A DNA stretch of 64,000 nucleotides from Silvibacterium sp. (GTDB lineage: Bacteria > Acidobacteriota > Terriglobia > Terriglobales > Acidobacteriaceae): positions 1,168-65,167 of the forward strand of contig NZ_JASGFD010000025.1 of the NCBI RefSeq assembly GCF_047605705.1, written 5' to 3'. Shown here piece by piece: positions 8,476 through 31,416 of this stretch. The stretch's first letter is position 1, and each line of letters starts with the position of its first letter. Under the pieces are notes generated by a model. The model searched no databases. It was not told the DNA's origin and saw only the letters and a list, made by a program, of their open reading frames with translations. The position numbers and the translations under genes were made by a program.

Positions 8476-10026
8476 TTACCACTCCTTAGCGGGCGTATCC
8501 ATCTCCACCGGCGTTGAGGCAGGCGGCGCCTGCCAGCGCAATACCGGCTTGCGGGCGGCTGTCGTCTCGTCGAGGCGCGAGATGCGCGTCGAGTGCGGAG
8601 CCGAGGTCACCAGCTCGGGGTTCTCGTCCACTTCACGGGCGATCTGGCGCATCGCATCCACAAACAGGTCGAGCTCCTCACGCGACTCGCTCTCGGTCGG
8701 CTCGATCATCAGCGCGCCGGGCACGATCAACGGGAACGACGTGGTGTACGGATGGAAGCCGTAGTCGATCAGGCGCTTCGCGATGTCGCCCGTCTTCACA
8801 CCGTTCTTCGTCTGCCGTTTGTCGCTGAAAACGACCTCGTGCATGGAAGGCGTGTTGTAGGGCAGCTCGTAAAGATCCTGCAGCTTGGCGCGGATGTAGT
8901 TCGCGTTGAGCACCGCATCCTCGGTCGTCTGGCGCAGGCCGTCGGGACCGTTCGCGAGGATGTACGCGAGCGCGCGCACAAACATGCCGAAGTTGCCGTA
9001 GGTCATGCGCACGCGGCCCACTGACTCGGGACGGTCATAGTTCCAGTGCAGCAGACCGTCGGCTCCCTGAGCGACGACAGGCGTCGGCAGGAACGGCTCG
9101 AGGATCTTCTTGCAGGCCACCGGACCCGAGCCCGGACCACCACCGCCGTGCGGTGTCGAGAAGGTCTTGTGCAGGTTCAGGTGCATCACGTCCACGCCGA
9201 AGTCGCCCGGCCGCGTCTTGCCGACCAGCGCGTTCATGTTCGCGCCGTCCATGTAGAGCAGCGCGCCCTTATCGTGCAGCACGTCGGCGATGCGGTGAAT
9301 CTCGTTTTCGAAGACGCCGATGGTCGAGGGGTTGGTCAGCATCAGCGCCGCCGTGTCCTCATTCACCATCTGCGCGAGCGCGGCCACGTCCACGCCACCC
9401 TGCGCGTTCGACTTCAGGTTCACGACCTGGTAGCCGCAGCTCGCTGCAGTCGCGGGATTGGTGCCGTGCGCCGAGTCGGGGATGATGACATGCTTACGCG
9501 CATTGCCCTTCGACTGGTGGTACGCGCGAGCCAGCAGGATGCCGGTGAACTCACCATGCGCGCCGGCCGCAGGCTGCAGCGTGATCGCGTCCATGCCGCA
9601 GATCTCGATGAGGCAATCCTGCAGCAGCTTCACGATGCCGAGCGCGCCCTGCGAGAGGATCTCCGGCTGGTAGGGATGCGCCTCGGCGATGCCCTCGAGC
9701 CGCGAGACGAACTCGTTCACGCGCGGGTTGTACTTCATCGTGCAGCTGCCCAGCGGATACATGCCCAGGTCAATCGCGTAGTTCCACGTCGAGAGGCGCG
9801 TGAAGTGGCGGATGATCTCGATCTCGCTCAGCTCCGGCATCACGGCGATCTCGTCACGCACCGCGCCGCCCAGCAGCGCAGCCGCGTCGACTTCCGGCAC
9901 ATCGAGAGGCGCGAGCTTGTAGCCCTTCTTGCCAGGCGCCGACTTCTCGAAGCTCAGGTTTTCGTTCTGCGTCAGGTGCGCCGTGACCTTGCGCGGCGTG
10001 CCGACAAACTTGTCTGTAGTAGCCAT
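8476..10026 (-). CDS. gcvPB: glycine dehydrogenase (aminomethyl-transferring) subunit 2
   Basis: 516 aa. HLNLHKTFSTPHGGGGPGSGP PLP-lysine region is typical of GcvPB. Confidence 0.95.
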   Translation of the reverse strand: MATTDKFVGTPRKVTAHLTQNENLSFEKSAPGKKGYKLAPLDVPEVDAAALLGGAVRDEIAVMPELSEIEIIRHFTRLSTWNYAIDLGMYPLGSCTMKYNPRVNEFVSRLEGIAEAHPYQPEILSQGALGIVKLLQDCLIEICGMDAITLQPAAGAHGEFTGILLARAYHQSKGNARKHVIIPDSAHGTNPATAASCGYQVVNLKSNAQGGVDVAALAQMVNEDTAALMLTNPSTIGVFENEIHRIADVLHDKGALLYMDGANMNALVGKTRPGDFGVDVMHLNLHKTFSTPHGGGGPGSGPVACKKILEPFLPTPVVAQGADGLLHWNYDRPESVGRVRMTYGNFGMFVRALAYILANGPDGLRQTTEDAVLNANYIRAKLQDLYELPYNTPSMHEVVFSDKRQTKNGVKTGDIAKRLIDYGFHPYTTSFPLIVPGALMIEPTESESREELDLFVDAMRQIAREVDENPELVTSAPHSTRISRLDETTAARKPVLRWQAPPASTPVEMDTPAKEW

Positions 10027-10056
10027 GTGTTCCTCGAATCTCTATCCCACTGTTCC

Positions 10057-10094
10057 GGGTGCCCCACATCTCGTGAAGTTTGAGATGTGGGAAG
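10057..10094. repeat. R2 palindromic element (cccacatctc-N9-gagatgtggg)
   Basis: 10-bp perfect stem at 10063-10072 / 10082-10091. Flanks gggtgcccca..tgggaagg are shared with the next element. The same hairpin core recurs at 57158-57193. Confidence 0.8.
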
Positions 10095-10111
10095 GTAGAA
10101 ACCTAAACTCT

Positions 10112-10152
10112 GGGTGCCCCATTCAAGCCTGATTTCGGCTTGAGTGGGAAGG
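10112..10152. repeat. R1 palindromic element (cccattcaagcc-N7-ggcttgagtggg)
   Basis: 12-bp stem at 10118-10129 / 10137-10148 with one wobble position. Related copies at 1709, 13453, 23314 and 27146. Confidence 0.8.
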
Positions 10153-10169
10153 CACGAACCTAACCCGAA

Positions 10170-11510
10170 CTAACCTTGGATCGCTTCCGCGGCTGCTTCA
10201 ATCTGCTCGCGCGTGGTCAGCTCGGTGGCGCACCACAGCGTGGCATTGCCCAGCTCGGGATACCACTTCTTCAGACTGAGTCCGCCGATGATCTTCTTGT
10301 CGAGCAGCCGTGCATTGAGAGCCTCTGCGGTCTCGTCCGTCTGCAGCACGAACTCATGGAAGCGCGGCGTGTTCGCGAAGAGCAGCTTGCCCTGCTTGCC
10401 GATCGTCTCCGCAGCGAAGCTGCCCTTGGCCAGGTTCTGCAGCGCGAGATCGCGCATGCCCTGCTTGCCGTAGACGGTGAGGAAGATCGTCGCCATCAGC
10501 GCGACCAGCGCCTGGTTGGTGCAGATGTTCGAGGTCGCCTTCTCGCGGCGGATATGCTGCTCGCGCGTCGAGAGCGTCAGCACGAAGCCGCGGCGGCCTT
10601 CTGTGTCCTTGGTCTCGCCCACAAGGCGGCCGGGCATCTGGCGCAGGTACTTTTCCTTCGCCGCCAGCACGCCGCAGTAGGGGCCGCCGTAGCTCAGCGC
10701 CACACCGAAGCTCTGCGCTTCGATCGAGACGATGTCGGCCTCGACCGGAGGACGCATGATGCCGAGCGAAACGGCCTCGGCGATCGAGACGATCAGCAGT
10801 GCGCCCTTCTTGTGCGCGATGTCCGCAATGGCCGGGATATCTTCCGCAATGCCGAAGAAGTTCGGCGACTGCACCAGCACGCACGCGGTCTGGTCGGTAA
10901 CGGCCTGCTCCAGCGCTTCGAGATCGACGCGGCCAGCCTTGGCATGGCCCTCGGGATAGTACGTAACCTCGCTCGCATCGTGGCCCTGGTGCTGCGCGTA
11001 GGTGTGCATCACCTCGCGATACTCGGGATGCACGGTCTTCGCCACCAGCACGCCATCGCGGCCGGTGATGCGGACGGCCATCATCACGGCTTCCGCCGCG
11101 CCGGTCGAGCCGTCGTACATCGAGGCGTTGGCGATGTCCATGCCCGTCAGCTCACAGATCATCGTCTGGAACTCGAAGATGGCCTGCAGCGTGCCCTGCG
11201 TGATCTCCGCCTGGTAGGGCGTGTAGGAAGTGAGGAACTCGCCGCGCTGCACGAGCGAGTCGATGACCACCGGGCGATAGTGGCGGTACGCGCCTGCGCC
11301 AAGGAAGCTCGTGTAGCCGTTGGCGCTCTTCGCCGATGCGGCCTTGAAGTGATCGATAATCTCGGACTCGCCGAACTGGCGCGGGATGGAGAGATCGCGC
11401 GTGAAGCGGTACTCCTCAGGGATGACGGCAAAGAGCTCGTCGATCGAGGAGGCGCCGATCTCGCGCAGCATGTCTACGCGCTCGGCATCGGACTTGGGAA
11501 GATAACGCAT
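10170..11510 (-). CDS. gcvPA: glycine dehydrogenase (aminomethyl-transferring) subunit 1
   Basis: 446 aa. N-terminus [19 protein letters not shown] and [30 protein letters not shown] are typical of GcvPA. Confidence 0.95.
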
Positions 11511-11574
11511 CGGACTTCCTTTAAAAAGCGGTGAGCTTCAAACAAAATTCGTAACAGATACGACTACAAAATCC

Positions 11575-11641
11575 CTGCGCCGCGCTTTCCGCGCAGACGC
11601 AGCAATGCCCGTAGCCGCGCGCCTTGCACGCAGCTACGGGC
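11575..11641 (-). other. two intercistronic stem-loops between gcvH and gcvPA
   Basis: Hairpins ctgcgccgcg..cgcgcag (11575-11596) and gcccgtagc-N17-gctacgggc (11607-11641), read directly. Function unknown (attenuation or mRNA processing). Confidence 0.4.
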
Positions 11642-11648
11642 AGATAGG

Positions 11649-12038
11649 CTACTTGCCGGTCTCTTCGGCGATGAACGCCTCGTACTGGGCGGCCGAGAGC
11701 AGGCTGTCGAGTTCCGCAGGGTCGCTCAGCTCAACCTTGATGATCCAGGCGGTGTGCGCCTCGGTGTTGATCTTCTCGGGCGAGTCATGCAGTTCGGCGT
11801 TGACCTCGGTCACCGTGCCGCTGACCGGCGAGAAGAGATCGCTGACGGCCTTGACCGACTCGACGCTGCCAAAGACCGCGTCCTTCTCGACCTTGGTGTC
11901 CACCTTCGGCGCGTCGACGAAGACGATGTCGCCGAGCGTGTTCTGCGCGTAGTCGGTGATGCCTACGGTGCCGATGTTGCCGGCAACCTCGATCCACTCA
12001 TGTTCCTTGGTGTACTTGTACGTTGCGGGATAAGCCAT
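11649..12038 (-). CDS. gcvH: glycine cleavage system protein H
   Basis: 129 aa. Lipoyl-lysine motif SVESVKAVSDLFSPVSG. Confidence 0.95.
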   Translation of the reverse strand: MAYPATYKYTKEHEWIEVAGNIGTVGITDYAQNTLGDIVFVDAPKVDTKVEKDAVFGSVESVKAVSDLFSPVSGTVTEVNAELHDSPEKINTEAHTAWIIKVELSDPAELDSLLSAAQYEAFIAEETGK

Positions 12039-12202
12039 GCGAACAATCTCTCCGTGAAATTTCGTCTGTGGTGCCGTATAGGGTGCGTATCTTGTTGGGG
12101 TCCGTGCGATGGAACCGGACAGGGTGGAATCGCTACCTCGGCAACGCGCGGACCTGAAATCCGCCTCGTGCCTCCGGTATAAAAGTCTAAAACCTGACTC
12201 TT

Positions 12203-13342
12203 TTATGCCTGCTTCTTCGGCCGGCGATAAAACGGTGTCGGCACGATGCGCGCCTTCACCGCATTCCCGCGGATTTCGACGGCAACCTCGCCATCCACCT
12301 GCGCCACCTCTACCGGCACATACGCGAGCGCGATGTTCTTCTTGAGGAATGGCGAAGGCGAGCCGCTGGTGACTTCGCCGATCTTTACGCCGTTTGCGTC
12401 GAGCACCGGATAGCCGTCGCGGGCGATGCCGCGCTCGATCATCTCGAGGCCGACGAGCTTGCGTTGCGGACCACCATCGGCGGTGATCTTCTCAAGCGCT
12501 TCAGAGCCGACGAACGGCCCCTTCTCGAGCTTCGCATAGCGGCCAAGGCCAGCTTCGAAAACGTTGATCGTCTCGGAGATCTCATGGCCGTAGAGCGCCA
12601 TCGCCGATTCCAGGCGCAGCGTGTTGCGCGCGCCCAGGCCGCAAGGGATGATGCCGAACTCCTTGCCCGCCTCGAGCACCTCGTTCCATACGCGCTCGCT
12701 GGTGGCCTCGTCGGAAGGCACATAGATCTCGAAGCCATCTTCACCGGTGTAGCCGGTACGCGCGATCAGCGTGTTGTGCAGGCCGCAGACCGTGCCCCAT
12801 GTGAACCAGTAGTTTTTGATCGTGCTCAGGTCCACATTGGTCAGCTTGGCCAGCGTCTCGGCCGCGCGCGGGCCCTGGATGGCCAGCTGCGTGTAGTAAT
12901 CGCTGTAGTCGCTCACGTGGCAGTGGTGGAACTTCTGCGACTGGGTGCGAATCCACTGGTAGTCCTTCTCACGCGTGCCGGCGTTGATCACGATGAGGTA
13001 GTCGTTTTCGCCCAGCTTGTGCACGATGACGTCGTCCACGAAGGTGCCATTCGGATAGAGCATGGCCGAGTACTGCGCCTGGCCCACCTGCAGCTTCGAG
13101 GCATCGTTCATCGAGAAATTCTGCACAGCGGCCAGCGAATCGGGACCGCGCAGCTGGATGTCGCCCATGTGGCTCACGTCGAAGAGGCCGACACCGGTGC
13201 GCACGGCCATGTGCTCGGCGATCAGGCCCGAGTACTCGACCGGCATATCCCAGCCGCCGAAATCGACCATCTTCGCGCCCGAACGGCGATGCATAGCGTT
13301 AAGCGCAGTTTTACGAAGGGCGGCAGGTGCGGAGGTAGCCAC
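12203..13342 (-). CDS. gcvT: glycine cleavage system aminomethyltransferase T
   Basis: ..LRKTALNAMHRRSGAKMVDFGGWDMPVEYSGLIAEHMAVRTGVGLFDVSHMG. Start set at GTG 13342 (AGGA 9 nt upstream), giving 379 aa. The track extension to 13516 runs through a repeat element. Confidence 0.9.
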   Translation of the reverse strand: MATSAPAALRKTALNAMHRRSGAKMVDFGGWDMPVEYSGLIAEHMAVRTGVGLFDVSHMGDIQLRGPDSLAAVQNFSMNDASKLQVGQAQYSAMLYPNGTFVDDVIVHKLGENDYLIVINAGTREKDYQWIRTQSQKFHHCHVSDYSDYYTQLAIQGPRAAETLAKLTNVDLSTIKNYWFTWGTVCGLHNTLIARTGYTGEDGFEIYVPSDEATSERVWNEVLEAGKEFGIIPCGLGARNTLRLESAMALYGHEISETINVFEAGLGRYAKLEKGPFVGSEALEKITADGGPQRKLVGLEMIERGIARDGYPVLDANGVKIGEVTSGSPSPFLKKNIALAYVPVEVAQVDGEVAVEIRGNAVKARIVPTPFYRRPKKQA

Positions 13343-13452
13343 GGCGGGGAATCCTTTAGAGAAATATCTCGAACCTTTTAAAGTATCACCTACTGCTTCG
13401 CATGGCGCTCCCGTTGGCGCGATCCCAGTTTTATGCAGTGGAGACGAAAAGG

Positions 13453-13484
13453 GGGGCGTCCCGTCCAAGCTCCGACTAGGCGGG
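13453..13484. repeat. degenerate R1 copy inside the gcvT leader
   Basis: gcgtcccgtccaagc-tcc-gactaggcggg. The first arm matches the R1 variants at 23314 and 27146. The second arm is decayed. Confidence 0.45.
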
Positions 13485-13587
13485 AGATACCGACCTCCAG
13501 GTTCTCTAGCAGGCATGCATGCCCGTGCCGAGGAGAACCTTCAGCGCTGATGGGGATGTCTACCGCGGTACGGAACCCGGACGCAGA

Positions 13588-14964: not shown

Positions 14965-15717
14965 TTACGGCGCGGAAATTACTCCCATCAAACAATTCCC
15001 ATCCTTCGTCTTCGGCTGAAAACGTCCGTTGGAAGACCCTGCTGCGCCAAGCGGAGTTTGCAAGACCCAGTCCAGTCCCACGAGCCGGGCCATCGCATCT
15101 GCGGCGCGCCGCTCGTGCTGCAACGTTGGGATATAAGGCACTTCAGAGGTCAGATAGAGGCTGACAACTCCGTCAACAGGAGTAAAAGCCGGGTTGAAGC
15201 AAGCTCCGTGAAATTTCGCACCGGTGACCTGCTTGTAGATCAGCACCTGATCGAGAGCGACCGATGCGGGAATCAACCCCACATCCTGCCCAGTGAACGA
15301 TGCGGAAGCATTCGCGACGAACTGATCGCACACCCACTCTTCGGGCGGCGCAGGCAAAGTAAAAGCAATATCCCAGCCACCCATGATCGGGCGATTCGCA
15401 GAAAGCCAGGGCGTATTCGCAGAAATGCTCGTCTTCAAATCACCGAGGGTCAGAGGCGCGGGCGTATAGCCGCTGGCGTATTGCGGATCGATGCAGTGCC
15501 AGTAGCTTTCCAACATATAGGTCGAACCGCTGTTGATGGTTGCTGCGTTTGTGTGACCGCAAACCGGCGCATAGACATCGACGCCGGTGATCTTCGCACC
15601 CGCATCGGAAGAGTTGGATTCGGTCTTCACCGAGAAAATAAAAGCCCCTTCGAAATGCAGATGCAATTCAAAGGGGGTTGAGGGAGTGGAAGCCTGCGAA
15701 CTCACTTGCTCAGTCAT
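14965..15717 (-). CDS. orphan 250-aa protein, third gene of the sigma/anti-sigma-CHAT module
   Basis: ATG 15717 overlaps the upstream stop as ATGA (15714-15717). Balanced composition, no signal peptide or TM segment, 7 Cys. The antisense ORF 14890-15681 is Arg-rich junk. Confidence 0.7.
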   Translation of the reverse strand: MTEQVSSQASTPSTPFELHLHFEGAFIFSVKTESNSSDAGAKITGVDVYAPVCGHTNAATINSGSTYMLESYWHCIDPQYASGYTPAPLTLGDLKTSISANTPWLSANRPIMGGWDIAFTLPAPPEEWVCDQFVANASASFTGQDVGLIPASVALDQVLIYKQVTGAKFHGACFNPAFTPVDGVVSLYLTSEVPYIPTLQHERRAADAMARLVGLDWVLQTPLGAAGSSNGRFQPKTKDGNCLMGVISAP

Positions 15718-18700
15718 CGAAACAGCTCCTTAAGGTTTTCCCTGCTCATGCCAAAGACGGAATAAGAGGCCCAGAAGTACGGATGGTGATATCCGGACTG
15801 TGCACTCAACTCCCGCTCAGACTCCATCAATGCGGTGGAAACACTCTTCCCTGCCGCCAACTCTCCATAAAACGCCTTCATCAACGGCACGGAAGCCGCA
15901 GAGTCCACAGCCCAGTGTGCGGCCACAGTCTGCTTTACGCCGTCAGCGGACAGGGTCTGCTCGATATCCGCTGCGCCGCCGACATCGCGATCTTCTCTGC
16001 TTCCGGTGGCGCAGGCAGAGAGCACAAACAGGCGGCATGCGGCGAGCGCGTGCGGCGGAATATTGCGCACATCGAGCTCCCCGGCCGTATCGTGCCTCTC
16101 TGCTGCCAGCATCAGTTTCGTCGCACTGTCCTTTACGGCGGCGTGTCCGGCAAAGTGCACCATGACAGATCCTGAAAGAGCCTGCTCCATGGCCTCCGGC
16201 GTCGCTCCGCGTCCAGTCAGAACCGTGGCTCCAGGCAGTGTCGCAGCCACAGCCACGGCCTCCGTCCTAGCCTCGGGCAGTCTCGCCAGATTCTCGCGCG
16301 CGGGCATCGAGGCACCGATAACCAGACTCTTCTCCCCCTCGGTGGCCCGGGACACGCCGGAACCGGCGAGAAGCGCGCGGACCTCTTCGACTGGCATCTC
16401 CAGTCCGAGGTAGCTGCCACGCCAGGGCAAAGCATTCACCGGCAGATAGTCCATGCTGTCATCGAGATCGAAAACGACCTCGTGCGCTTTCGCCAGATCG
16501 TCAACGAAAGGCCCAAACAAATGCGTAGCCAGAGAGGCTCCCAGCTCATGGATACCGCTCTCGGCGCTGGTCGGCGAGGCGACTGTATCCGCGAACGCAT
16601 GGCAAAGCAGGTCGAAGCGCGCTGAATCCAGTTCTACTTCCTGAAAGCGAACGCCGTCACTGTCCATCTTCCATAGCAAAAGAGAGCGATCCAGGCGTAT
16701 CGCGCCCAGGACAATCCCTGCGCCAAGACGTTTACGAATATTCTCCAGGGCTGGAACAAGGCAGGCAATACCAGGATCCTGTCCACACCATGGCCGCATA
16801 TCCGGAGCTACCGACAACAGCCGATAACGCTCCCAGGCAGCAAGTGCCTCCATGGCCGGCCGCCCCTCGTGAAGCTCCAGCTGCACCATGGAGGCATAGA
16901 CCGGACGGACACGTTCAACCCAGTCCTCCCGCTCCTGCCTGCTGGTCGCAGCCTTAGCGCCCTCTTCCGCTAGAGCCAAGGCACGACTGAGATTCCTGGC
17001 AGCATCCTGCTCATGATGCTCTACGAGATCGAGCTTGCCCTGAACCAGGGCATAACGCAGCTCGACATCCCGGTTACCAGCCAGATCGGCCCCCTTGCCA
17101 GCACTCGCCACAACTTGCTCAGCGTCGAGCATATCGCCGGAGGCAAGATAAGCGTCAGCCATCATGCTGCTCATGTTCACGTTCGAGCGCACGACCTTAT
17201 CGTGGTCCTGCCCGGAGCTGAAAAATGCCACTCCCCGTCGCCAGTCTTCCTTGCTGGCGGCGAGCTCTCCATCTCGAACCTCCGCCTTTGCCAGCAGTAG
17301 CTGATTCGCCGCAAGCACCTCGGGCAAATCCATCGGGACTAGCATCCGGGTTGCTTCGCGATGCAGCAAAGCTGCGCCATACACCCGATCCGACGCCCCT
17401 TCGGCGTAGACCATGTTCCCGTAAAACTGCAGCTTGCGTATGGCCGGATAATCTCCGTTCCAGTAGGTCCGCAGGCCCTCCAGGCTCATCTTCCAGGCCT
17501 GCGCGCGGTTCCCCTGCGATTCTTCGTTGCTGGCGAGAAAGCCGAGTGCCCGCAGATGCACGATGCCGTAGCCGGCCTCATCGGAGATATGCAGGGAGCG
17601 TGTCAGGCTCGCATTTACCGTGGCAAAGTCATTCTGCTGCAGGTGGCAGGAAGACTCATCGGCCCAGAACTGCGCGGCCATCCACGGGTAAGGCCGGCCC
17701 GTGGAGACACCCGTCAGCGTCGCCGCTTCCTTGAGGCAGTTGCGGTCATCGAGCAGGTGTTCATCGTCGAAGACCACTTCGAGGCCGGCCCGCAGCGCCC
17801 CGGCCTGGTCTCCTAGCGTCGTGAAACTGCGCTGCGCCTCCGAAGCGCCATGCAGGGCCTCGGAAAAGAGCGTGTGCGTCCCATCGGTCATCGCCGTGCC
17901 CAGCAGCCCAGCGGCAGCGGGAAAGCCCGGCTTATTCGAAGCAGCCAGAAGATCGATCAGCCAGCGGTCGTGGTGCCGCGACTCCAGCGAGGCGGCTATG
18001 GCGGACAGCAGCGACCGCGCCGCGCTACAGCCTGCATCGCAGTTTTCTGTGGATTCGGATGTCGGGGGAGAGATCGGGAAAGCGGCTTGCAGCAGGTGCG
18101 GGAGATGCGTCGTGGAAAGCTCTTCGTCGTGCGCGGCAAGCAGGTCCGGACTTCGCGCCAGGTGCAGCATCCCTTCCGGCGTGGCCATGTAGGGCGCAAG
18201 CTCCGACTGCTTCGCATTCTCTCGCGCCAGCCTCGCGGTCACCGCATCGAGATGGCGCTGTCCGTCGGCGTGCCATTCCGGATCGCGCTCGACAGCGAGG
18301 TATTTCTTCCAGGCATCCACCGCGGCGAGGTATTGATAGACCTGCTCAAGGAGCAGCCCCTCGTTGTAGAGCACCACGGGATCGTTCGGCGCCAGCTTCG
18401 CCGCGTGCTCGATCGCATCCAGCGCGGCGGCGCGATCGGTCGAGGTATCGGTTGCCACGGCACGCTCCTGATACGCCGTAGCCAGATCCGTAAGCACCGC
18501 GACATCGTCCGAACTCTGCACCTCGAGGCGGCGCAACGTGTCGATGGCCGAATCGTAGTTCTCGTTCAGCAGATCGGCGCGCGCTTCCAGCAGCAGCCAC
18601 TTCGGATCTTCCGGCGACTTCATCAGGGCCTGCGTAATCGCCGCCCGTGCTTCCAGCAGCGGCACGGCCTCGTGCCCCGCTTCGCCTGCGCCTCGGGTGC

Positions 18701-19271
18701 GCTCAGGTCCACTCACCGCGGCATAGCCGGCGAGGGGAATCCGCAGCTCCATCGTGCGATCGGTGGTGTACGCCTCGGCCAGCAGCCGCTCGGGGGACTT
18801 CAGACTCTGATTGCCCAGGAAGAGAAAGAGCAGCGCGCCTGCGGCAATCGCGCCGGCCACACCGAGCACCGAGCTCCACAGCAGTATGCGTCCGCCCTGC
18901 CGGGTATGGCTCTCGTGCATCTGCTGCGCCACGGCCGCCTGCCACTCTGGCTCGATGCAGCGGAGTTCCTCGAGCGCACCGCGCTCGCCCTGCACCTCGC
19001 CGTCACTCAGGACATCGGACCAGAAGAGCAGTCTTGCTCCGCAGCCTCGACACTCCGAAGCATGGAGCAGCAGCACGGCCGACGACGGCTTATCGAGACG
19101 CCCGGCAATGTATTTTTCCCAGGTGGACTCGTCCGGGCAATCCGGGCCGAAGCTGTCCCGGCCGATCGCACTCCATTGCGGAGGCTCGCCGCCCGGCAGC
19201 TCATCCAGCAGCCGCGAGAGGCGTTCTGCTGTCTTGTCATCACTGGGGCCCGGAGAAGGTTTCATATCCAC
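15714..19271 (-). CDS. anti-sigma factor (zf-HC2 type) fused to a TM helix, TPR repeats and a C-terminal CHAT caspase-like protease domain
   Basis: Hx3Cx2C (LLLHASECRGCGARL, 19041-19064). One TM helix ILLWSSVLGVAGAIAAGALLFLFLG (about 18813-18889). TPR-like repeats (..YDSAIDTLRRL..LAPNDPVVLYNEGLLLEQVYQYLAAVDAWKKYLAV..). CHAT motifs VMVHFAGHAAV (His codon 16143-16145), LFVLSACATG (Cys codon 16011-16013) and HPYFWASYSVFG. An alternative ATG at 19265 gives an ATGA overlap with the sigma stop. Confidence 0.8.
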   Translation of the reverse strand: MDMKPSPGPSDDKTAERLSRLLDELPGGEPPQWSAIGRDSFGPDCPDESTWEKYIAGRLDKPSSAVLLLHASECRGCGARLLFWSDVLSDGEVQGERGALEELRCIEPEWQAAVAQQMHESHTRQGGRILLWSSVLGVAGAIAAGALLFLFLGNQSLKSPERLLAEAYTTDRTMELRIPLAGYAAVSGPERTRGAGEAGHEAVPLLEARAAITQALMKSPEDPKWLLLEARADLLNENYDSAIDTLRRLEVQSSDDVAVLTDLATAYQERAVATDTSTDRAAALDAIEHAAKLAPNDPVVLYNEGLLLEQVYQYLAAVDAWKKYLAVERDPEWHADGQRHLDAVTARLARENAKQSELAPYMATPEGMLHLARSPDLLAAHDEELSTTHLPHLLQAAFPISPPTSESTENCDAGCSAARSLLSAIAASLESRHHDRWLIDLLAASNKPGFPAAAGLLGTAMTDGTHTLFSEALHGASEAQRSFTTLGDQAGALRAGLEVVFDDEHLLDDRNCLKEAATLTGVSTGRPYPWMAAQFWADESSCHLQQNDFATVNASLTRSLHISDEAGYGIVHLRALGFLASNEESQGNRAQAWKMSLEGLRTYWNGDYPAIRKLQFYGNMVYAEGASDRVYGAALLHREATRMLVPMDLPEVLAANQLLLAKAEVRDGELAASKEDWRRGVAFFSSGQDHDKVVRSNVNMSSMMADAYLASGDMLDAEQVVASAGKGADLAGNRDVELRYALVQGKLDLVEHHEQDAARNLSRALALAEEGAKAATSRQEREDWVERVRPVYASMVQLELHEGRPAMEALAAWERYRLLSVAPDMRPWCGQDPGIACLVPALENIRKRLGAGIVLGAIRLDRSLLLWKMDSDGVRFQEVELDSARFDLLCHAFADTVASPTSAESGIHELGASLATHLFGPFVDDLAKAHEVVFDLDDSMDYLPVNALPWRGSYLGLEMPVEEVRALLAGSGVSRATEGEKSLVIGASMPARENLARLPEARTEAVAVAATLPGATVLTGRGATPEAMEQALSGSVMVHFAGHAAVKDSATKLMLAAERHDTAGELDVRNIPPHALAACRLFVLSACATGSREDRDVGGAADIEQTLSADGVKQTVAAHWAVDSAASVPLMKAFYGELAAGKSVSTALMESERELSAQSGYHHPYFWASYSVFGMSRENLKELFR

Positions 19272-19948
19272 TCACCTTTGTGTACCGCAGGGCGGGAGGA
19301 AAACCCTTCACCGGAATTGAAATTGGCCGCCCGGGAGGCGGCGTCGGTGCGAAGATTCAGCCGGAGAAATGCCAGCATCCGGTGCAGCGCGCTCTCCACG
19401 CCCTTCACCGACAACGAGATGCCGGGCTGCGCCGCGATCGCATTCGCCGTCATGCCCTGCTGGTAATACAGCCAGAAGATGGTGCGGTGCATACGGCCCG
19501 TCACCCCGCCGCTGTAGGAGTCGAGGAGCTGATCGATCTCCCCCAGCAGGATGCTGCGCTCCATCCACTCAGCCTCGGAGAAGACCGGCGCATGAAATTC
19601 GGTGAGATCTTCCTCGACCTGGCCGTCGCCGCGCTTCTGCGTGTTCTTGCGGCGGAAGTGATCGTTGGCTACGGCGGCGCTGATGACGCGCGCATATGAA
19701 AGAAATGAGTCGGGATAACGGGGCTCGAAATCGCGCAGCAGGCGGCGGTCATCCTCACAAAACTTGAGAAAAACATCCTGCACGATGTCATCGACGGTAG
19801 CCGCGGAGCTTTCGCCCCATTGCCGGGCGACACGGAGAACCGAACGCGCAATCGGCCGAGCGAAGCGGCGAACAAACTCCTGCCACTCCTCAGCCTTGGC
19901 GCCAGCTGCACAACGCAGCGCCAGGTCGTTCGCAGTCATGGTATCCAT
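19262..19948 (-). CDS. RNA polymerase ECF-type sigma-70 family factor
   Basis: Region 2 (VDDIVQDVFLKFCED..SFLSYARVISAAVANDHFRRK) and region 4 HTH (RTIFWLYYQQGMTANAIAAQPGISLSVKGVESALHRMLAFLR). Confidence 0.85.
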   Translation of the reverse strand: MDTMTANDLALRCAAGAKAEEWQEFVRRFARPIARSVLRVARQWGESSAATVDDIVQDVFLKFCEDDRRLLRDFEPRYPDSFLSYARVISAAVANDHFRRKNTQKRGDGQVEEDLTEFHAPVFSEAEWMERSILLGEIDQLLDSYSGGVTGRMHRTIFWLYYQQGMTANAIAAQPGISLSVKGVESALHRMLAFLRLNLRTDAASRAANFNSGEGFSSRPAVHKGEWI

Positions 19949-20082
19949 ACCGGGCTTTTGCGTTCAGATTACCTCAAACCGATGTCATTCGGCAGTATCT
20001 GAAGCTACCTTTCCCGCGTAAATTCACGGAATAAAAGCGCTACCACGGAAAGGATGGGATAAATGCCGGGATATTTGCCCTG

Positions 20083-20910
20083 TCACTCCTGAGTTACTTC
20101 ATCGCTAACCACGAAGAAATGTTTCAAATTAGCGACGCCAAAGGATGTCGTGATCGCCACATCGGCGGCATCGCGCCCCACGGCCATCAGCACCCTGCCT
20201 ACGCGAGGCTGATTGTGGCGGGCGTCAAAAGTCCACCATCGGCCCTCCCCCCTGCCGTCTGCCAGATACACCTGGAACCAGGCGCTGAAGTCCATCGGGC
20301 TCGGAGCGGGCGGCACGCGGATATCGCCCAGATAGCCGGTGGCATACCGAGCCGGGATATTGAGCGCCCGCAGAAAGGTGATAGCCAGATGCTGAAAATC
20401 GCGGCAGACACCCTGGCGTTCGGTAAAGACGTCGAGGGCCGTCTTGGTGGGGCGGGCAAAGTGATAGCCGAAGGCCACCTTCTGGTGCACCCAGTCGCAG
20501 ACCGCCTGCACCCGTCCCCAGCCCGGATCGACGCCGCCGAAGAGGTCCACCGCTTCCGCCGACATCCGGTCGACCTCGCAGTAGCGGCTGCTGAGCAGGT
20601 AGCGCATCACGTCACTGGGCAGCTCGGCGACCGGAATCTCTTCGGCATCGAGACAGACCGGGTCGGGGTCGCCCGAATCCTCGACGAGGGTGCGGTTGGA
20701 GAGGCGCACGATCCCTTCCGGAGCCTCGAAGCGGGTGCAGATATTGCCGAAGCTGTCGAGGTAGCTGTCCATCTGCAGTGCGGGGTCGATGCGCAGCTCA
20801 TCCGGCTCGCGAAGATCGCCCGCGCGCGAAGGGTGCACGTGCAGCATGGCGACAAAGGCCGTGGCACGGGGAAGTTCGAAATCGATGTCATAGCCCAGGC
20901 GTAAGAGCAT
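20083..20910 (-). CDS. transglutaminase-like family protein (Bact_transglu_N + transglutaminase core)
   Basis: MLLRLGYDIDFELP.. N-terminal domain. Core GVCRDFQHLAITFLRALNIPARYATGYL (Cys codon 20404-20406) and ..DFSAWFQVYL..WWTFDARHN. Confidence 0.8.
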   Translation of the reverse strand: MLLRLGYDIDFELPRATAFVAMLHVHPSRAGDLREPDELRIDPALQMDSYLDSFGNICTRFEAPEGIVRLSNRTLVEDSGDPDPVCLDAEEIPVAELPSDVMRYLLSSRYCEVDRMSAEAVDLFGGVDPGWGRVQAVCDWVHQKVAFGYHFARPTKTALDVFTERQGVCRDFQHLAITFLRALNIPARYATGYLGDIRVPPAPSPMDFSAWFQVYLADGRGEGRWWTFDARHNQPRVGRVLMAVGRDAADVAITTSFGVANLKHFFVVSDEVTQE

Positions 20911-21149
20911 CCGTGGTTGCGACCCCTAGAAAGGAAATGAACAGCGGCCGCACGAAGACACAACCCGGCCCGCGCCCGTCGGGAATGGGGACCAGCCGCT
21001 GCCATGCGGGAGGGGCGCATCGGTAGGATGCGGTTTGCCCTCTTCGCAGCGTGGAATCACCTGCCCGTCATCTTCACCCGCCGATAGATCGTTTAAAGTG
21101 GCAGTAGCAGCCGCTGTGCGGCACACCACCACCCCACAAGAGGATTGCA

Positions 21150-21887
21150 GTGACGTATTGCCTCGGGATATTGACCCACCAGGGCCTGGTGATGGCCTCC
21201 GATTCCCGCTCCAACGCCGGTTTCGACCAGGTGAATGTCTGCCGTAAGATGCACACCTTTGTGCACCCGGGCGAGCGCTCCTTCGTCATCCTGACCAGCG
21301 GTAGCCTGTCGCTCACCCAGTCGGTCATCTCCCTGTTGCGCGACGAGTTCGAGGCCGGCGAGGGCCTGGCCAGCGTGGACTCCTTCTACGCCGCGGCGCG
21401 CGTGGTCGGCGACTGCGTACGCAAGGTCTCGGAGCTGGACCGGGCCGCACTCGAGCGCGATGGGTTCAGCTTCAACATCAACCTGCTGCTGGGCGGACAG
21501 GTGAAAGGCGAGCGCCCGGCGCTCACCATGATTTATCCCCAGGGCAATCCGCTGAGCGCCACCTATGACTCACCGTATCTGCAGATCGGCGAGGTGAAGT
21601 ACGGCCGCCCGATCCTCGACCGCGGCATTGTCTCCGGCGCCACCACGCTCGAGGATGCAGCGATGTACGCGCTGCTCTCCTTCGACGCGACCATGCGCTC
21701 GAACGTGACGGTGGGGCCGCCGATCGAGGTGCTGCTCTATGAGAACGACAAGCTGGAGTTCGACCGCTACCGCCGCTTCTCCGCCGATGATCCGGAGCTG
21801 ATGCTCATCCATCGCCACTGGGAGCAGGCGCTGCGCCGCGCTGTCGAAGAGCTGCCCAAGGTGCAGTTCAATTCCTGCCTGCCATAA
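21150..21887 (+). CDS. proteasome-type protease, Anbu (ancestral beta subunit) family
   Basis: GTG start, then TYCLGILTHQGLVMASDSRSNAGFDQVNVCRKMHTF. N-terminal Thr (21153-21155) and the Ntn-hydrolase beta-subunit pattern characteristic of Anbu. AGAGGA RBS at 21139-21144. Confidence 0.8.
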   Translation: MTYCLGILTHQGLVMASDSRSNAGFDQVNVCRKMHTFVHPGERSFVILTSGSLSLTQSVISLLRDEFEAGEGLASVDSFYAAARVVGDCVRKVSELDRAALERDGFSFNINLLLGGQVKGERPALTMIYPQGNPLSATYDSPYLQIGEVKYGRPILDRGIVSGATTLEDAAMYALLSFDATMRSNVTVGPPIEVLLYENDKLEFDRYRRFSADDPELMLIHRHWEQALRRAVEELPKVQFNSCLP

Positions 21888-21920
21888 GAGCATGCCTGCG
21901 CTGAGAGGAAAGATGCGCCC

Positions 21921-23309
21921 GTGATCGCCTTCCTGGTGGCCGGAACCGGCAGCGGTGTCGGCAAGACGACCATCGCGCTGGCGCTGATGGCGGCCTTCCG
22001 CGAGCTTGGCCACACCGTGCAGCCCTTCAAGTGCGGGCCGGACTTCCTCGATACCGGGCACCACACTGCAATCTGCGGCCGCATCTCCCGCAATCTCGAC
22101 ACCTGGATGCTGCCCCTCGAAGCCAATCGCGAGATCTTCGCACAGGCCAGCCGCGGCGCGGACGTTGCCATCGTCGAAGGCATGATGGGACTCTTCGACG
22201 GCAAATCCGGCGAAGGCGAGCGAGGCAGCGCGGCGGAGATTGCGAAACTGCTCGATCTGCCGGTAGTGCTGGTGCTCGACGCGGCGAAGAGCGCGCGCAG
22301 CATCGCCGCCGTCGTCAAAGGCTTCGAGAGCTTCGACCCGGAACTGCGCTTCGCGGGCATCGTGCTCAATGGCGTTTCGAGCGACGGGCATTCCCGCATG
22401 CTCGAATCCGCCATCACGGCCGTCACCGCGATTCCGCTGCTCGGCCGCTTCCCTGCCAATCCTGCATTGACGATTCCCGAGCGGCACCTGGGCCTACGCA
22501 CAGTAGAGGAGGAACACCCGAGCACAGATCGCAATGCGCGCTTCGCAGAGGCTGCGCGGCAATATCTCGACCTCGCCCCACTGCTCCAGCGATCGCATGG
22601 GTCGCCTACGCTCGCAGCAAGCACTCCTGTGGCGACCGAAGTGAAGGTGCGTATCGGCGTGGCGCGAGACAAGGCATTCTCCTTCTATTACGAGGACAAC
22701 TTCGACTTGCTGCGTGCGTGCGGCGCGGAGATCGTGCCCTTCAGCCCGCTCTCCGACCATGCTCTGCCACGCGATCTCGACGCTCTTTATTTCGGCGGGG
22801 GATATCCCGAGCTGCATGCGGAGCAACTGGGCGCGAACCACGCGATGATCGCGGCCATTCGCAGCTTCGCCGAATCGGGCCGTGCGATCTACGCCGAATG
22901 CGGAGGCATGATCTACCTTGGGCAATCGATTACGACACTCGATAGCCAGGCGCTGCCGATGGCAGGCGTGCTGCCGCTCTCCTTTGAGATGACCCAGAGG
23001 CTGGTGCAGTTCGGCTATGTCGATATCGAGTTCACAGAGGATTGCCTGCTCGGGCCGCGCGGGCTGACCGTGCGCGGGCACAGTTTCCACTACTCGCGCC
23101 TGACGCAGAACGACGCCCTGCCCACGTCCTACCGCGTGCAATATTCGTTATCGGGAAAGACCGAGCCGGAAGGATTCCTCTACAAAAACGTGCTGGCCAG
23201 TTACATCCACCTGCATTTTCGCGGTAATGCTGTGCTGGCCCAATCGTTCGTGCGCTCTGTTGCGAATTTGTCGCCGCGAAATCGAGATGCAGAAGATCTG
23301 GCGTTATAA
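21921..23309 (+). CDS. cobB: cobyrinate a,c-diamide synthase family (CobB/CbiA) ATP-dependent glutamine amidotransferase
   Basis: P-loop AGTGSGVGKTT, PFKCGPDFLDTGHH, and a C-terminal GATase with AIYAECGGMIYLGQ. Confidence 0.85.
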   Translation: MIAFLVAGTGSGVGKTTIALALMAAFRELGHTVQPFKCGPDFLDTGHHTAICGRISRNLDTWMLPLEANREIFAQASRGADVAIVEGMMGLFDGKSGEGERGSAAEIAKLLDLPVVLVLDAAKSARSIAAVVKGFESFDPELRFAGIVLNGVSSDGHSRMLESAITAVTAIPLLGRFPANPALTIPERHLGLRTVEEEHPSTDRNARFAEAARQYLDLAPLLQRSHGSPTLAASTPVATEVKVRIGVARDKAFSFYYEDNFDLLRACGAEIVPFSPLSDHALPRDLDALYFGGGYPELHAEQLGANHAMIAAIRSFAESGRAIYAECGGMIYLGQSITTLDSQALPMAGVLPLSFEMTQRLVQFGYVDIEFTEDCLLGPRGLTVRGHSFHYSRLTQNDALPTSYRVQYSLSGKTEPEGFLYKNVLASYIHLHFRGNAVLAQSFVRSVANLSPRNRDAEDLAL

Positions 23310-23313
23310 GATC

Positions 23314-23350
23314 GTGCCCTCCCACCCAAGCGAAGCTTGGATGGGGCCCC
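23314..23350. repeat. R1-variant palindromic element
   Basis: gtgccctcccacccaagc-gaa-gcttggatggggcccc, in the spacer between convergent cobB and the VWFA gene. Confidence 0.6.
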
Positions 23351-23383
23351 CTGATCCTCGCTTACAGAACAGCTCTGTCGTTC

Positions 23384-24472
23384 CTACTCCGCTCCCAGAG
23401 CGTAATAGCCTTTGCGCGCCTGCACCTTCAGCCCATCGCCTTTGCAGCTGATATCGAGCTTGCGATAGCTGCCGTCGAGCTTCAGATTTGTCGGCGTGTA
23501 GCTGAGCAGGTACTGTGTGCGCAGCTCCTCTTCGATCTGCGCGAAGGCGTCTTCGAGCTTCTTGCCGTTGTTGCCGACATTGATCACGCGGCCGCCTGTC
23601 TCCGAGGCGAGCTTCTGCATCTGCGAATCGCCGGTGTAGCCAAGGCCGAAGCCTCCGCCTGCGTAGAAGGGACGGTCGGCGATCATGATGACATAAATGA
23701 TGGCGTTGGCCTTCTGCGCGGCTTCGACGGCCTCGTTGGGCTTGGTCACCGAGCCCTCGTCCTCGCCGTCCGTCAGCAGGATCAGCGCCTTGCGGCCCGT
23801 CTCCGAGCGGATCTTGTCATTCGAAACCTGCGCCACGGCGTCATAAAGAACGGTTCCCTTCGGCGCGCCATGCGTGGGGACCGGTCCCTGGCCGATGCCG
23901 GGCACGCCCATGGAACCGCCGCCGGCTGCGGTGTTGATCTCGGTGTGATCGATGGCCCGCTCCAGCTGGCTGGTGTTGCTGGTGAAATCCTGCTCGAGGT
24001 TCACCCCCACGTCGAAGCTGACGACGAAGGCTTCATCCTTCTTGCGGATGACATCCTTAATGAAGGAGTCGGCCGACTGCTGTTCGAGCGGCAGCACGCG
24101 CTGCTGGCTGCCGGAGGTGTCGATGAGCAGGCCCAGCGTGAGCGGCAGATCGGTTTCAGCAGCAAAGTTCTTGATGTTCTGCGGCTGCTTGTCCTCGAAG
24201 ACCGTGCAATCGCTCTTGGCCAGCGTCGGGATGAGGCCGTTGTGCTTGTCGCGCACGGTGAAATAGAGGCTCACCAGGTTGACGTTGACCTTGAGCGTCG
24301 TCTCCGGCTTGTTCTCATCCGGCTGGTCGGGAAAATTGCTGTCCGCGGGGGGCGCATCTGCCGAGGGCGTCGTCTGGGCAAAGGCTGCGGAGGACGGCAC
24401 GAGAACAAGACCGGCGGCAACACCGGGCAACAGGGCCAGCGCCAGCAGCAGGGAGCGTCGGGAATTCAGCAT
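23384..24472 (-). CDS. VWA domain protein (acidobacterial VWFA-related family)
   Basis: Signal peptide. N-terminal beta module VNVNLVSLYFTVRDKHNGLIPTLAKSDCTVFEDKQPQNIKNF. Intact MIDAS LLIDTSGSQ. Confidence 0.8.
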   Translation of the reverse strand: MLNSRRSLLLALALLPGVAAGLVLVPSSAAFAQTTPSADAPPADSNFPDQPDENKPETTLKVNVNLVSLYFTVRDKHNGLIPTLAKSDCTVFEDKQPQNIKNFAAETDLPLTLGLLIDTSGSQQRVLPLEQQSADSFIKDVIRKKDEAFVVSFDVGVNLEQDFTSNTSQLERAIDHTEINTAAGGGSMGVPGIGQGPVPTHGAPKGTVLYDAVAQVSNDKIRSETGRKALILLTDGEDEGSVTKPNEAVEAAQKANAIIYVIMIADRPFYAGGGFGLGYTGDSQMQKLASETGGRVINVGNNGKKLEDAFAQIEEELRTQYLLSYTPTNLKLDGSYRKLDISCKGDGLKVQARKGYYALGAE

Positions 24473-28451: not shown

Positions 28452-28689
28452 TCGTTTTGATTCAACGACTTAGCAGAATCCCTAACAGGACTCAGCCCCA
28501 GATGACAACCAGGATTCCGCCCCGTCCAAACCTTTAGGACGCCGCAACCTGGCCGGAACTGCCGGGTTGCTACCCAGAGGAGCGCGCCCAATCGCGTTTC
28601 CACGCCTTCCGGCTCCGGCCGGCCCGCATCCAATCCCACGAGGCCCAAGGCCTCCATCGCAGAGATCTGGAGTGACCAGAGACACGACC

Positions 28690-31347: not shown

Positions 31348-31375
31348 CACCTTCCCACAAAACGCGTCGCTCCCG

Positions 31376-31416
31376 AAAAGCGGGTGGAGTAATCTGAACT
31401 CCACCCGCTTTTCTTG
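31376..31416 (+). terminator. rho-independent terminator
   Basis: 14-bp perfect stem aaaagcgggtggag / ctccacccgctttt with a T-rich tail. It ends 20 nt before the eutB ATG. Confidence 0.8.

Follow-up and report, generated by a model that had tools for sequence, protein, structure and literature searches.

The closest described counterpart of the locus analysed here is the DdvS/DdvA pair of Myxococcus xanthus, an ECF sigma factor and its transmembrane ZAS-TPR-CHAT anti-sigma factor, which has been studied both genetically and structurally (cryo-EM structure 8ROT and NMR structure 8RLZ; also PDB entry 8RW5) and which controls a CBASS/CRISPR-Cas anti-phage defence island in that species (PMC6061681, PMC11506125). 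The DdvA assembly is dimeric and arrow-shaped, and its CHAT active site, which is without the three-helix motif, was described as incomplete; mutants of the catalytic dyad had no phenotype in unperturbed cells (PMC6061681, PMC11506125). Loss of the periplasmic domain is followed by RseP-dependent intramembrane proteolysis of DdvA, and a model of autoproteolysis followed by RseP cleavage was proposed, not demonstrated (PMC6061681, PMC11506125). DdvA-like proteins have been reported only from Myxococcota and one Comamonas (PMC6061681, PMC11506125).

The window, a 64-kb stretch of DNA from a Silvibacterium species, a soil bacterium of the Acidobacteriota, contains a genuine three-gene operon on the minus strand. 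Direct reading of the sequence bore out the three ATGA-coupled open reading frames of the first-pass annotation: the stop of the sigma gene overlaps the start of the anti-sigma gene at 19262-19265, and the stop of the anti-sigma gene overlaps the start of the third gene at 15714-15717. An alternative GTG start would place the anti-sigma gene at 15714-19271(-). The genes and the element upstream of them are as follows.

19964-19972, minus strand: GTAATCTGA, candidate promoter element, roughly 17 nt ahead of the sigma start
19262-19948, minus strand: ECF-type sigma factor, 228 aa, above the cutoffs of TIGR02937 and Sigma70_r2
15714-19265, minus strand: ZAS-TM-TPR-CHAT anti-sigma factor, 1183 aa from the ATG (the form in the public annotation)
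14965-15717, minus strand: third gene, 250 aa, uncharacterised beta-rich family

The sigma factor scored 54.6 bits against TIGR02937 (cutoff 42.9), with the match spanning aa 32-197, and 28.6 bits against Sigma70_r2 (PF04542, cutoff 24). Both sigma-70 regions had been annotated at first; region 2 was confirmed by its own profile, while Sigma70_r4_2 (PF08281) reached only 14.3 bits against a cutoff of 25.7, in a region that TIGR02937 also spans and in which the orthologous sigma factors keep the segment FWLYY..G.TA..IA..P.I.LS.KGVES. All NCBIfam sigma subfamily models fell far below their cutoffs for this protein, and the searches gave no significant similarity to any solved ECF sigma factor and no specific similarity to DdvS. 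Upstream of the gene, GTAATCTGA is the form taken here by a -10-like element, GTAnA[ACT]T, which is kept in the Silvibacterium loci; 48 of 75 regions upstream of sigma genes contain it, compared with 8.2 in shuffled sequences. The analysis yielded no definable ECF-type -35/-10 promoter.

The anti-sigma factor was divided into the following parts, all encoded on the minus strand.

18966-19160, minus strand: cytoplasmic zinc-type anti-sigma domain, aa 36-100
19137-19139, 19062-19064, 19050-19052 and 19041-19043, minus strand: putative zinc ligands C43, H68, C72 and C75, invariant
18813-18869, minus strand: single transmembrane helix, aa 133-151
18666-18797, minus strand: conserved juxtamembrane segment (SPERLLAEAYT..R..ELRIP, aa 157-185) and the loop after it
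16728-18665, minus strand: TPR-like alpha-solenoid, aa 201-846, all-helical in the model
15717-16718, minus strand: CHAT caspase-fold protease domain, aa 850-1183

The arrangement C43-x24-H68-x3-C72-x2-C75 was invariant across 28 homologues sharing 24-65% identity, and about 62 of 67 homologues carried the Hx3Cx2C motif, which reads HASECRGC in the window protein. When the N-terminal 130 aa were searched, the Pfam profile zf-HC2 (PF13490) remained below threshold (13.8 bits vs 22.2, E 0.066). The ZAS signature noted at first is present, and the Cys-His-Cys-Cys set is typical of zinc anti-sigma domains. The single transmembrane helix was confirmed at aa 133-151, with a hydropathy maximum of 2.36 at the same location in all homologues and a helix at 134-151 in the AlphaFold model. 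On its far side, A163, A165, Y166, R170, R175 and R191 were invariant in the homologue alignment, the last of these (18693-18695) lying in a low-confidence loop after the juxtamembrane segment (pLDDT below 50 at aa 188-196). We infer that this segment and the R191 loop form a candidate site-1 cleavage region.

The extracytoplasmic part was modelled as a monomer together with the rest of the protein (pLDDT 83.9, pTM 0.79). Individual Pfam TPR matches were all sub-threshold, and the family profile matched consensus TPR proteins with an E-value of 1e-31, in agreement with the TPR-like repeats first annotated; the length given for them, about 750 aa, was too great, since the model is all-helical over aa 201-846 and the solenoid thus measures about 650 aa. 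The CHAT domain was matched by PF12770 at aa 907-1172 (E 2.9e-40, 139 bits vs a cutoff of 24), with both the HFAGHA and LSAC motifs present. The predicted catalytic residues H1041 (16143-16145) and C1085 (16011-16013) were invariant across the 28 homologues, so the annotated intact His/Cys dyad was retained.

Comparison of the anti-sigma model with the PDB by Foldseek returned 8rot_A as the top match (E 2e-17, target-normalised TM-score 0.72, 1072 aligned columns), compared with scores of about 0.40 for Csx29 and about 0.23 for separase. By family profile, the best natural match in the PDB was again DdvA (8rot_B, E 5e-16), and the CHAT domain alone matched DdvA with an E-value of 8e-8; H1041 and C1085 aligned with DdvA region 832-948, which contains H862 and C907. 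A single-sequence search with the anti-sigma factor found nothing. The window protein is a distant member of the DdvA kind, and the data make it very probable that the pair is a DdvS/DdvA-like sigma/anti-sigma system; they do not prove that the full architecture descends from an ancestor shared with DdvA instead of having arisen by convergence. The first-pass statement that no experimentally characterised example of this layout exists was wrong, since DdvS/DdvA has the same layout with genetics and a cryo-EM structure. The idea of an anti-sigma factor with its own protease is likewise not new, and the architecture had largely been described together with its mechanism, of which self-cleavage by DdvA is only a proposal.

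At least 517 relatives of the CHAT anti-sigma family were found, and the best 80 loci were all from Acidobacteriota. Within that phylum the family extends through Terriglobia, among them Acidobacteriaceae, Bryobacteraceae, Ca. Solibacter and Ca. Angelobacter, to Blastocatellia. In 65 of 72 genome loci, drawn from several orders and with unrelated flanks, the gene immediately upstream of the CHAT gene encodes an orthologous sigma factor; orthologues in this position share 35-58% identity with the window sigma factor. The triad was found in every homologue context examined on long contigs. Dozens of genomes have the three genes together although their flanks are unrelated, an association far beyond chance. 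Fortuitous adjacency, or a large protein that is a generic TPR-CHAT protein and no anti-sigma factor, would fit the sub-threshold zf-HC2 score, and TPR-CHAT proteins are common; the adjacent sigma gene in 65 of 72 loci, the invariant Cys-His-Cys-Cys residues and the modelled overall fold, which matches DdvA with the N-terminal region included, all argue against such a reading. It is very improbable and, judged from the conservation data, already close to refuted. What is new here is the wide spread of a DdvA-like module across Acidobacteriota and its conserved third gene: the range reported for DdvA-like proteins, Myxococcota and one Comamonas, is an undercount, since Acidobacteriota commonly have a deep-branching family of the same kind.

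The genes flanking the module in the window were housekeeping genes (glycine cleavage, transglutaminase-like, CobQ-like and VWA), and the flanks varied among genomes. A PADLOC search with the three module proteins and four neighbouring proteins gave no match, and no CRISPR array was found within the window. Control of an anti-phage defence island (CBASS/CRISPR) is the role known from M. xanthus, the source of the only homologue that has been characterised; these results and the differing housekeeping flanks make it improbable for the window pair, and even among DdvA-like pairs defence systems lie near only a subset (PMC6061681, PMC11506125). The occurrence of copies in varied non-defence contexts points instead to a general envelope-signalling device whose use is not confined to phage defence.

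The third protein had been annotated as belonging to no recognised family, and searches of Pfam, NCBIfam, PADLOC and the PDB likewise gave no match; its AlphaFold model was poor (pLDDT 51). The family is rare: 1.84 billion proteins include 156 representatives of it. A CHAT anti-sigma gene is present in each of its contexts that were examined, a linkage that extends down to the weakest relatives. In 51 of 74 loci the gene immediately follows the CHAT gene, with the two either overlapping or separated by 21-33 nt with a Shine-Dalgarno sequence. It is absent from 21 of the 74, mostly from a Terracidiphilus subclade that retains the sigma and anti-sigma genes. The third gene is co-transcribed with the sigma/anti-sigma module and tied to it. 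Co-conservation held for sigma and anti-sigma factor and for the most part for the third gene. In an alignment of 42 sequences of forms without an export signal, G24, C53, P122, H201 and C242 were invariant, while C53 was not conserved in the exported forms. About one-third of the family members carried Tat or lipoprotein signals, and 31 of 56 CHAT-adjacent copies carried Tat, lipobox or hydrophobic N-terminal signals. The third protein of the window had no signal peptide or other export signal.

Our main reading, at a probability of about 70%, is that the operon is a DdvS/DdvA-type signalling operon that, by analogy with DdvA, works in the following way. A signal from the periplasm, probably in the form of a protein that binds to the TPR solenoid, would activate the CHAT domain, which would then cut the anti-sigma factor between membrane and solenoid. 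The candidate cut site is the disordered loop with the invariant Arg191, just past the SPERLLAEAYT segment. RseP and cytoplasmic proteases would clear the remainder and set the sigma factor free, and the released sigma factor would drive transcription, probably that of its own operon included. CHAT self-cleavage as the releasing step is a tentative part of this scheme, which we hold at somewhat less than even odds. The structural reading of the first pass is right, and its suggestion that a protease embedded in the anti-sigma factor frees the sigma factor is reasonable as a mechanism, self-cleavage being a proposal for DdvA too. For the third gene, a role as accessory partner or as output is the most likely, given its loss from the Terracidiphilus subclade that keeps the sigma/anti-sigma pair.

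Alternatively, the sigma factor could be released by classical regulated proteolysis, through a distinct site-1 protease or a different trigger, with the CHAT domain cutting another substrate or acting mainly as a sensor and steric block and the third protein serving as CHAT substrate, securin-like pseudosubstrate inhibitor or co-sensor. The unaffected phenotype of the DdvA dyad mutants and the incomplete DdvA active site are consistent with this, as are the linkage of the third gene down to the weakest relatives and the export signals in one-third of the family and in 31 of 56 CHAT-adjacent copies, which would place those third proteins in the compartment of the TPR-CHAT part. The third protein of the window and most members of its family, however, have no export signal, so a periplasmic partnership fits the window copy badly, and the 21 loci without the gene mostly keep sigma and anti-sigma factor. 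We regard this alternative as unlikely.

Targets of an ECF sigma factor are often encoded in its own operon. The third gene may be merely a local output, an effector made on sigma release and devoid of a signalling role, in keeping with its position downstream of the regulators in one transcript and its dispensability in one subclade; the linkage is unusually tight for this, the family seems confined to the sides of the CHAT anti-sigma module, and exported members alongside non-exported ones would be odd for a single effector function. An output role alone is about as unlikely as classical proteolysis. Somewhat less likely still is that the third-gene family acts as the missing partner of CHAT-type anti-sigma factors, as a dedicated substrate, securin-like pseudosubstrate inhibitor or co-receptor that times the protease. 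If true, the operon would be a proteolytic signalling system complete in three components, found widely in Acidobacteriota and without a connection to phage defence. The partner would also offer a direct experimental handle on how anti-sigma factors of this class are activated. The ligand, substrate or regulator of CHAT is the main open question from the DdvA work, and a family with many Tat substrates and lipoproteins is a candidate for that role.

Among the other systems compared, ECF54 of Actinobacteria has genes for CHAT, subtilase and carboxypeptidase proteins in its neighbourhood (PMC8999054, PMC7826278). It shares with the window module an ECF sigma factor genomically tied to a CHAT-domain protein and a proposed proteolytic control, and differs in its phylum, in having no recognisable anti-sigma factor and in a CHAT protein that is not fused to an anti-sigma domain. 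The classical anti-sigma factors (RsrA, ChrR, RslA and RsiW, and RseA with DegS/RseP) share the Hx3Cx2C motif and a fourth ligand upstream of it, the N-in single-pass topology and co-transcription with an ECF sigma factor. Their extracytoplasmic domains are small and their site-1 proteases separate, whereas the window protein has in this place a TPR-CHAT domain of about 1000 aa, which is itself a protease by sequence.

Craspase of type III-E combines Cas7-11 (gRAMP) with the TPR-CHAT protease Csx29, with Csx30 and with an RpoE-like sigma factor; RNA-bound Cas7-11 activates Csx29, which is soluble and cytoplasmic and whose substrate, Csx30, is a protein of its own. The type III-E system and the window module both link a TPR-CHAT caspase-fold protease to the control of an ECF-type sigma factor, and the parallel drawn at first proved generic only: the window anti-sigma factor is membrane-anchored, unlike Csx29, which is the weaker fold match; the type III-E sigma model NF041236 scored 18.4 bits (cutoff 100); and there are no cas domains in the neighbours and no CRISPR array.

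The likeness to DdvS/DdvA is more extensive. Both loci have the gene order sigma factor, anti-sigma factor and protein of unknown function, and in both anti-sigma factors an N-terminal CHCC zinc domain is followed by a single transmembrane helix, then by a long TPR solenoid in the periplasm and, at the C-terminus, by a CHAT domain that has a His/Cys dyad. They differ in sequence (about 16% identity), in length (1183 aa in the window vs 991 aa, about 190 longer) and in phylum, with the window module in Acidobacteriota. In addition, the window sigma factor is not detectably close to DdvS, the window module has no CBASS/CRISPR island nearby, and the triad is followed by two open reading frames without a Pfam match and not by a C25-type peptidase gene.

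Three consecutive minus-strand ORFs joined by ATGA had been described in the first-pass annotation, and the coordinates agreed with that description. Identical proteins carry public names that assign the window to Silvibacterium sp. of the Acidobacteriaceae. The features read in the window were as follows.

19262-19948, minus strand: ECF-type sigma factor, 228 aa
15714-19271 from GTG, or 15714-19265 from ATG, minus strand: anti-sigma factor
14965-15717, minus strand: third protein, 250 aa
19964-19972, minus strand: GTAATCTGA, the window version of a -10-like motif upstream of the sigma gene

The ATGA overlaps were read directly in the sequence at both junctions (19262-19265 and 15714-15717), and the ATG form of the anti-sigma factor, with 1183 aa, is the version in the public annotation. 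The description of the first gene as an ECF sigma factor with regions 2 and 4 was upheld for region 2, with Sigma70_r2 (28.6 bits versus a cutoff of 24) and TIGR02937 (54.6 bits versus 42.9) above their cutoffs, whereas region 4 stayed below the Pfam threshold (14.3 bits versus 25.7). The group ECF54 was considered as a matching described ECF group and rejected, since its sigma factors are actinobacterial and lack an anti-sigma factor.

The anti-sigma factor combines a zinc-type domain, a TM helix, TPR and CHAT in one protein, as had been read from the sequence. The CHAT domain was detected by Pfam (PF12770, E 2.9e-40, aa 907-1172), and its His/Cys dyad is intact: G1040-H1041 and C1085 were invariant in an alignment of 28 sequences spanning 24-65% identity. 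Single TPR matches were sub-threshold, and the family profile matched consensus TPR proteins with E 1e-31. The protein carries the HASECRGC motif and one hydrophobic helix at aa 133-151. The zinc anti-sigma signature scored below threshold with the Pfam zf-HC2 profile (13.8 bits versus 22.2), but roughly 62 of 67 full-length homologues had Hx3Cx2C about 60 residues ahead of their TM helix, and C43, H68, C72 and C75 were invariant in the 28-sequence alignment; this conservation across homologues settled the zinc-finger question. In one subgroup of the anti-sigma proteins (P0075-P0078, P0080 and P0091), two Hx3Cx2C motifs lie about 60 residues apart within the N-terminal 110 aa, and these sequences suggest a duplicated zinc-finger region. 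The anti-sigma ORF of one Acidobacteriota MAG (L050 3791-10750) apparently extends to about 2300 aa, perhaps because it is fused to sequence downstream, or perhaps as an artefact of assembly or of a frameshift.

In DdvA, the transmembrane anti-sigma factor of Myxococcus xanthus, a CHCC zinc domain lies in the cytoplasm and a TPR-CHAT domain of about 900 residues in the periplasm, with a single TM helix between them; the His-Cys dyad of the CHAT part is canonical (PMC11506125). Its complex with the sigma factor DdvS was solved by cryo-EM (8ROT, 8RW5) and its N-terminal domain by NMR (8RLZ) (PMC11506125). A single-sequence search of the PDB with the anti-sigma factor of the window gave no relevant match, and DdvA was found by family profile and fold search only. 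The best natural protein matched by the family profile was DdvA (8rot_B, E 5e-16), and with a profile of CHAT alone DdvA (E 8e-8) again outranked separase and a further CHAT protein. The AlphaFold model of the anti-sigma factor, built on the 28-sequence alignment, was confident (pLDDT 83.9, pTM 0.79). When this predicted model was compared with the PDB by Foldseek, 8rot_A ranked first (E 2e-17, 1072 aligned columns, 16% identity) with a TM of 0.72, normalised to DdvA; the TM was about 0.2-0.3 for separases and about 0.40 for the Craspase protease Csx29, to which a likeness had been drawn earlier. As modelled, the likeness to DdvA covers the whole anti-sigma architecture, beyond the protease domain. 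Unlike the anti-sigma/DdvA match, no specific similarity to DdvS was detected from the sigma factor, which had no significant match among solved sigma factors including DdvS. The data strongly suggest that the sigma and anti-sigma factors of the window form a DdvA-like pair, with a probability of roughly 0.85-0.9.

A protein search yielded about 65 full-length anti-sigma relatives down to 25% identity, the named ones being from Silvibacterium or Terracidiphilus, and at least 517 came from a scan in which each GTDB species was represented by one genome. The best 80 of these loci were all Acidobacteriota, including Acidobacteriaceae, Terracidiphilus, Silvibacterium, Terriglobales, Ca. Angelobacter, Ca. 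Acidiferrales, Ca. Solibacter, Bryobacteraceae, Pyrinomonadaceae and Blastocatellia. In an HMM search of locus ORFs, an orthologous sigma gene was located directly upstream of the anti-sigma gene in 65 of the 72 loci with enough upstream sequence; frameshifted ORFs explain some of the other seven. The flanking genes of the module are unrelated between clades. The expected co-conservation of sigma and anti-sigma genes was thus borne out, and a fortuitous adjacency of the two, which these conservation data contradict, is essentially excluded. Some loci (L056, L071, L074, L078) contain a second sigma and CHAT anti-sigma copy in tandem or divergent orientation.

Co-conservation of the third gene held for the most part. 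Of the 74 loci that continue for 900 nt or more beyond the CHAT gene, 51 had its superfamily as the next gene by an iterated HMM, and it was missing in 21, mostly from one Terracidiphilus subclade. Because this subclade lost the third gene and kept the pair, the third gene is dispensable for keeping the sigma/anti-sigma pair. The junctions between the CHAT gene and the third gene are either overlaps or gaps of 21-33 nt with a Shine-Dalgarno sequence. Look-ups started from third-gene homologues recovered the triad every time on long contigs, also around a very distant Tat-type relative. The protein P0024, a 345-aa homologue at L004 3151-4633, was a candidate for a third gene without a CHAT neighbour and was rejected, as a C-terminal remnant of CHAT lies directly upstream; this locus resembles a degenerate module. 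In the Terracidiphilus subclade, a gene for a secreted protein of about 785 aa directly follows the module (L005 10488-12851; L018, L025, L027, L042, L089), and the L005 copy has no Pfam match on record. It was rejected as a fourth component of the module: its window orthologue (about 52% identity) is separated from the module by about 40 kb (58907-61261, plus strand). The gene is a flanking gene and a marker of the subclade that lost the third gene.

The third protein had been noted as belonging to no recognised family, and it indeed had no match in Pfam, NCBIfam, PADLOC or the PDB (sequence and profile). Its distant relatives had no Pfam domain except for two chance-level repeat proteins. 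The close homologues are few and form 24 clusters, and the wider set was reached by a profile extended with genes located downstream in divergent loci. No more than 156 relatives turned up when 1.84 billion representative proteins were searched exhaustively by profile, and each is a stand-alone protein of about 230-330 aa. Conserved across the family are an N-terminal strand whose Gly is invariant, two prolines, a histidine that corresponds to H201 of the window protein, and a cysteine that precedes the C-terminus by 8-10 residues. By a rough heuristic, Tat-like, lipobox or other hydrophobic N-terminal signals are carried by about a third of 219 members and by 31 of 56 CHAT-adjacent copies; lipoprotein or Tat signals occur, for example, at L041 7481-8521, L055 7528-8463 and L064 6396-7544. 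The window protein and other forms of about 240-290 aa, among them those of 242-260 aa, are without a signal, and their ORFs cannot be extended upstream. Among 17 aligned sequences, the Cys of the PxCGH motif (C53) was retained solely in signal-less forms, and not in all of those. The AlphaFold model of the third protein was poor (pLDDT 51), and the Foldseek search with it (best E 0.27) was therefore uninformative. One rival explanation is that the third protein, though tightly linked, is a mere output of the sigma factor.

Upstream of the sigma gene, the -10-like motif GTAnA[ACT]T was found in 48 of 75 regions, compared with 8.2 in shuffles, and its wider consensus is TGnnGTAAAATCCGCCC. These regions contained no consistent -35 partner. 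The window version, GTAATCTGA, is not enriched elsewhere and occurs at chance level. Its sole other exact copy, at 31389, sits in the loop of an intrinsic-terminator-like hairpin (31372-31412, plus strand; gcgggtggag-taatctgaa-ctccacccgc, followed by T-rich sequence), which comes after a 926-aa ORF at 28567-31347. Two elements are specific to the Terracidiphilus clade (L008, L019, L025, L060, L082 and others) and may serve as binding sites of a further regulator: the near-palindrome ATTTGTAAACAAAT, which precedes the -10-like motif by about 20-40 nt, and GGGATACTAGCACAG, which precedes the sigma start by about 105-112 nt.

The flanks of the module in the window are housekeeping genes. A glycine cleavage operon (gcvT, gcvH and two gcvP subunits; 8476-13516, minus strand) lies just downstream, an arrangement shared with other Silvibacterium genomes (L001, L002). 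On the upstream side of the sigma gene, transglutaminase-like, proteasome-type, CobQ-like amidotransferase and VWA-domain genes are clustered at 20083-24472; the transglutaminase-like gene adjoins the sigma gene within Silvibacterium only, and the three genes tested with PADLOC (transglutaminase-like, proteasome-type and VWA) gave no match. Neither a PADLOC match for the module and its neighbours nor a CRISPR array was found in the window, where the context of the module is non-defence. The rival proposal in this respect is that the pair controls a defence island at another genomic location.

The best supported reading of the module is a DdvS/DdvA-like switch. The zinc domain would hold the sigma factor, and the periplasmic TPR-CHAT domain would sense a signal and block RseP; on activation the periplasmic domain would be removed, by the built-in CHAT or another protease, and intramembrane proteolysis would then release the sigma factor. 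For DdvA, it was proposed that a signal induces autoproteolysis by CHAT in trans and that RseP then cleaves and DdvS is freed (PMC11506125; PMC6061681), and RseP dependence was shown with truncated DdvA (PMC11506125). Self-cleavage of DdvA could not be shown because the trigger is unknown and the dyad mutants behaved like the wild type (PMC11506125). In the DdvA dimer a flexible linker faces the CHAT site. The window protein has a strongly conserved, confidently modelled segment right after the TM helix (SPERLLAEAYT..R..ELRIP; A163, A165, Y166, R170 and R175 invariant), followed by a low-confidence loop at aa 188-196 with an invariant R191, which is proposed by analogy with the DdvA linker as a candidate site at which the protein might cut itself. 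Release of the sigma factor through CHAT self-cleavage is tentative, with the odds leaning somewhat against it. Alternatively, CHAT might cut another substrate or only sense, and the third protein might be that substrate, an inhibitor or a co-sensor.

The first-pass annotation knew of no experimentally characterised example of this layout; DdvS/DdvA has it, with solved structures (PMC11506125, PMC6061681). Since the DdvS/DdvA model is published, the earlier idea of a built-in protease that frees the sigma factor is an existing hypothesis. The tightly linked, uncharacterised third-gene family might lead to the trigger of the DdvA-like anti-sigma class. DdvA-like anti-sigma factors had been reported in Myxococcota and one Comamonas only (PMC11506125), and their presence in Acidobacteriota makes the distribution much broader. 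M. xanthus has three DdvA-like proteins, and likewise one Ca. Solibacter MAG has two modules (L049 and L055). The window module is a very distant DdvA-like member, and the central idea drawn from it had been described before and characterised by structures.
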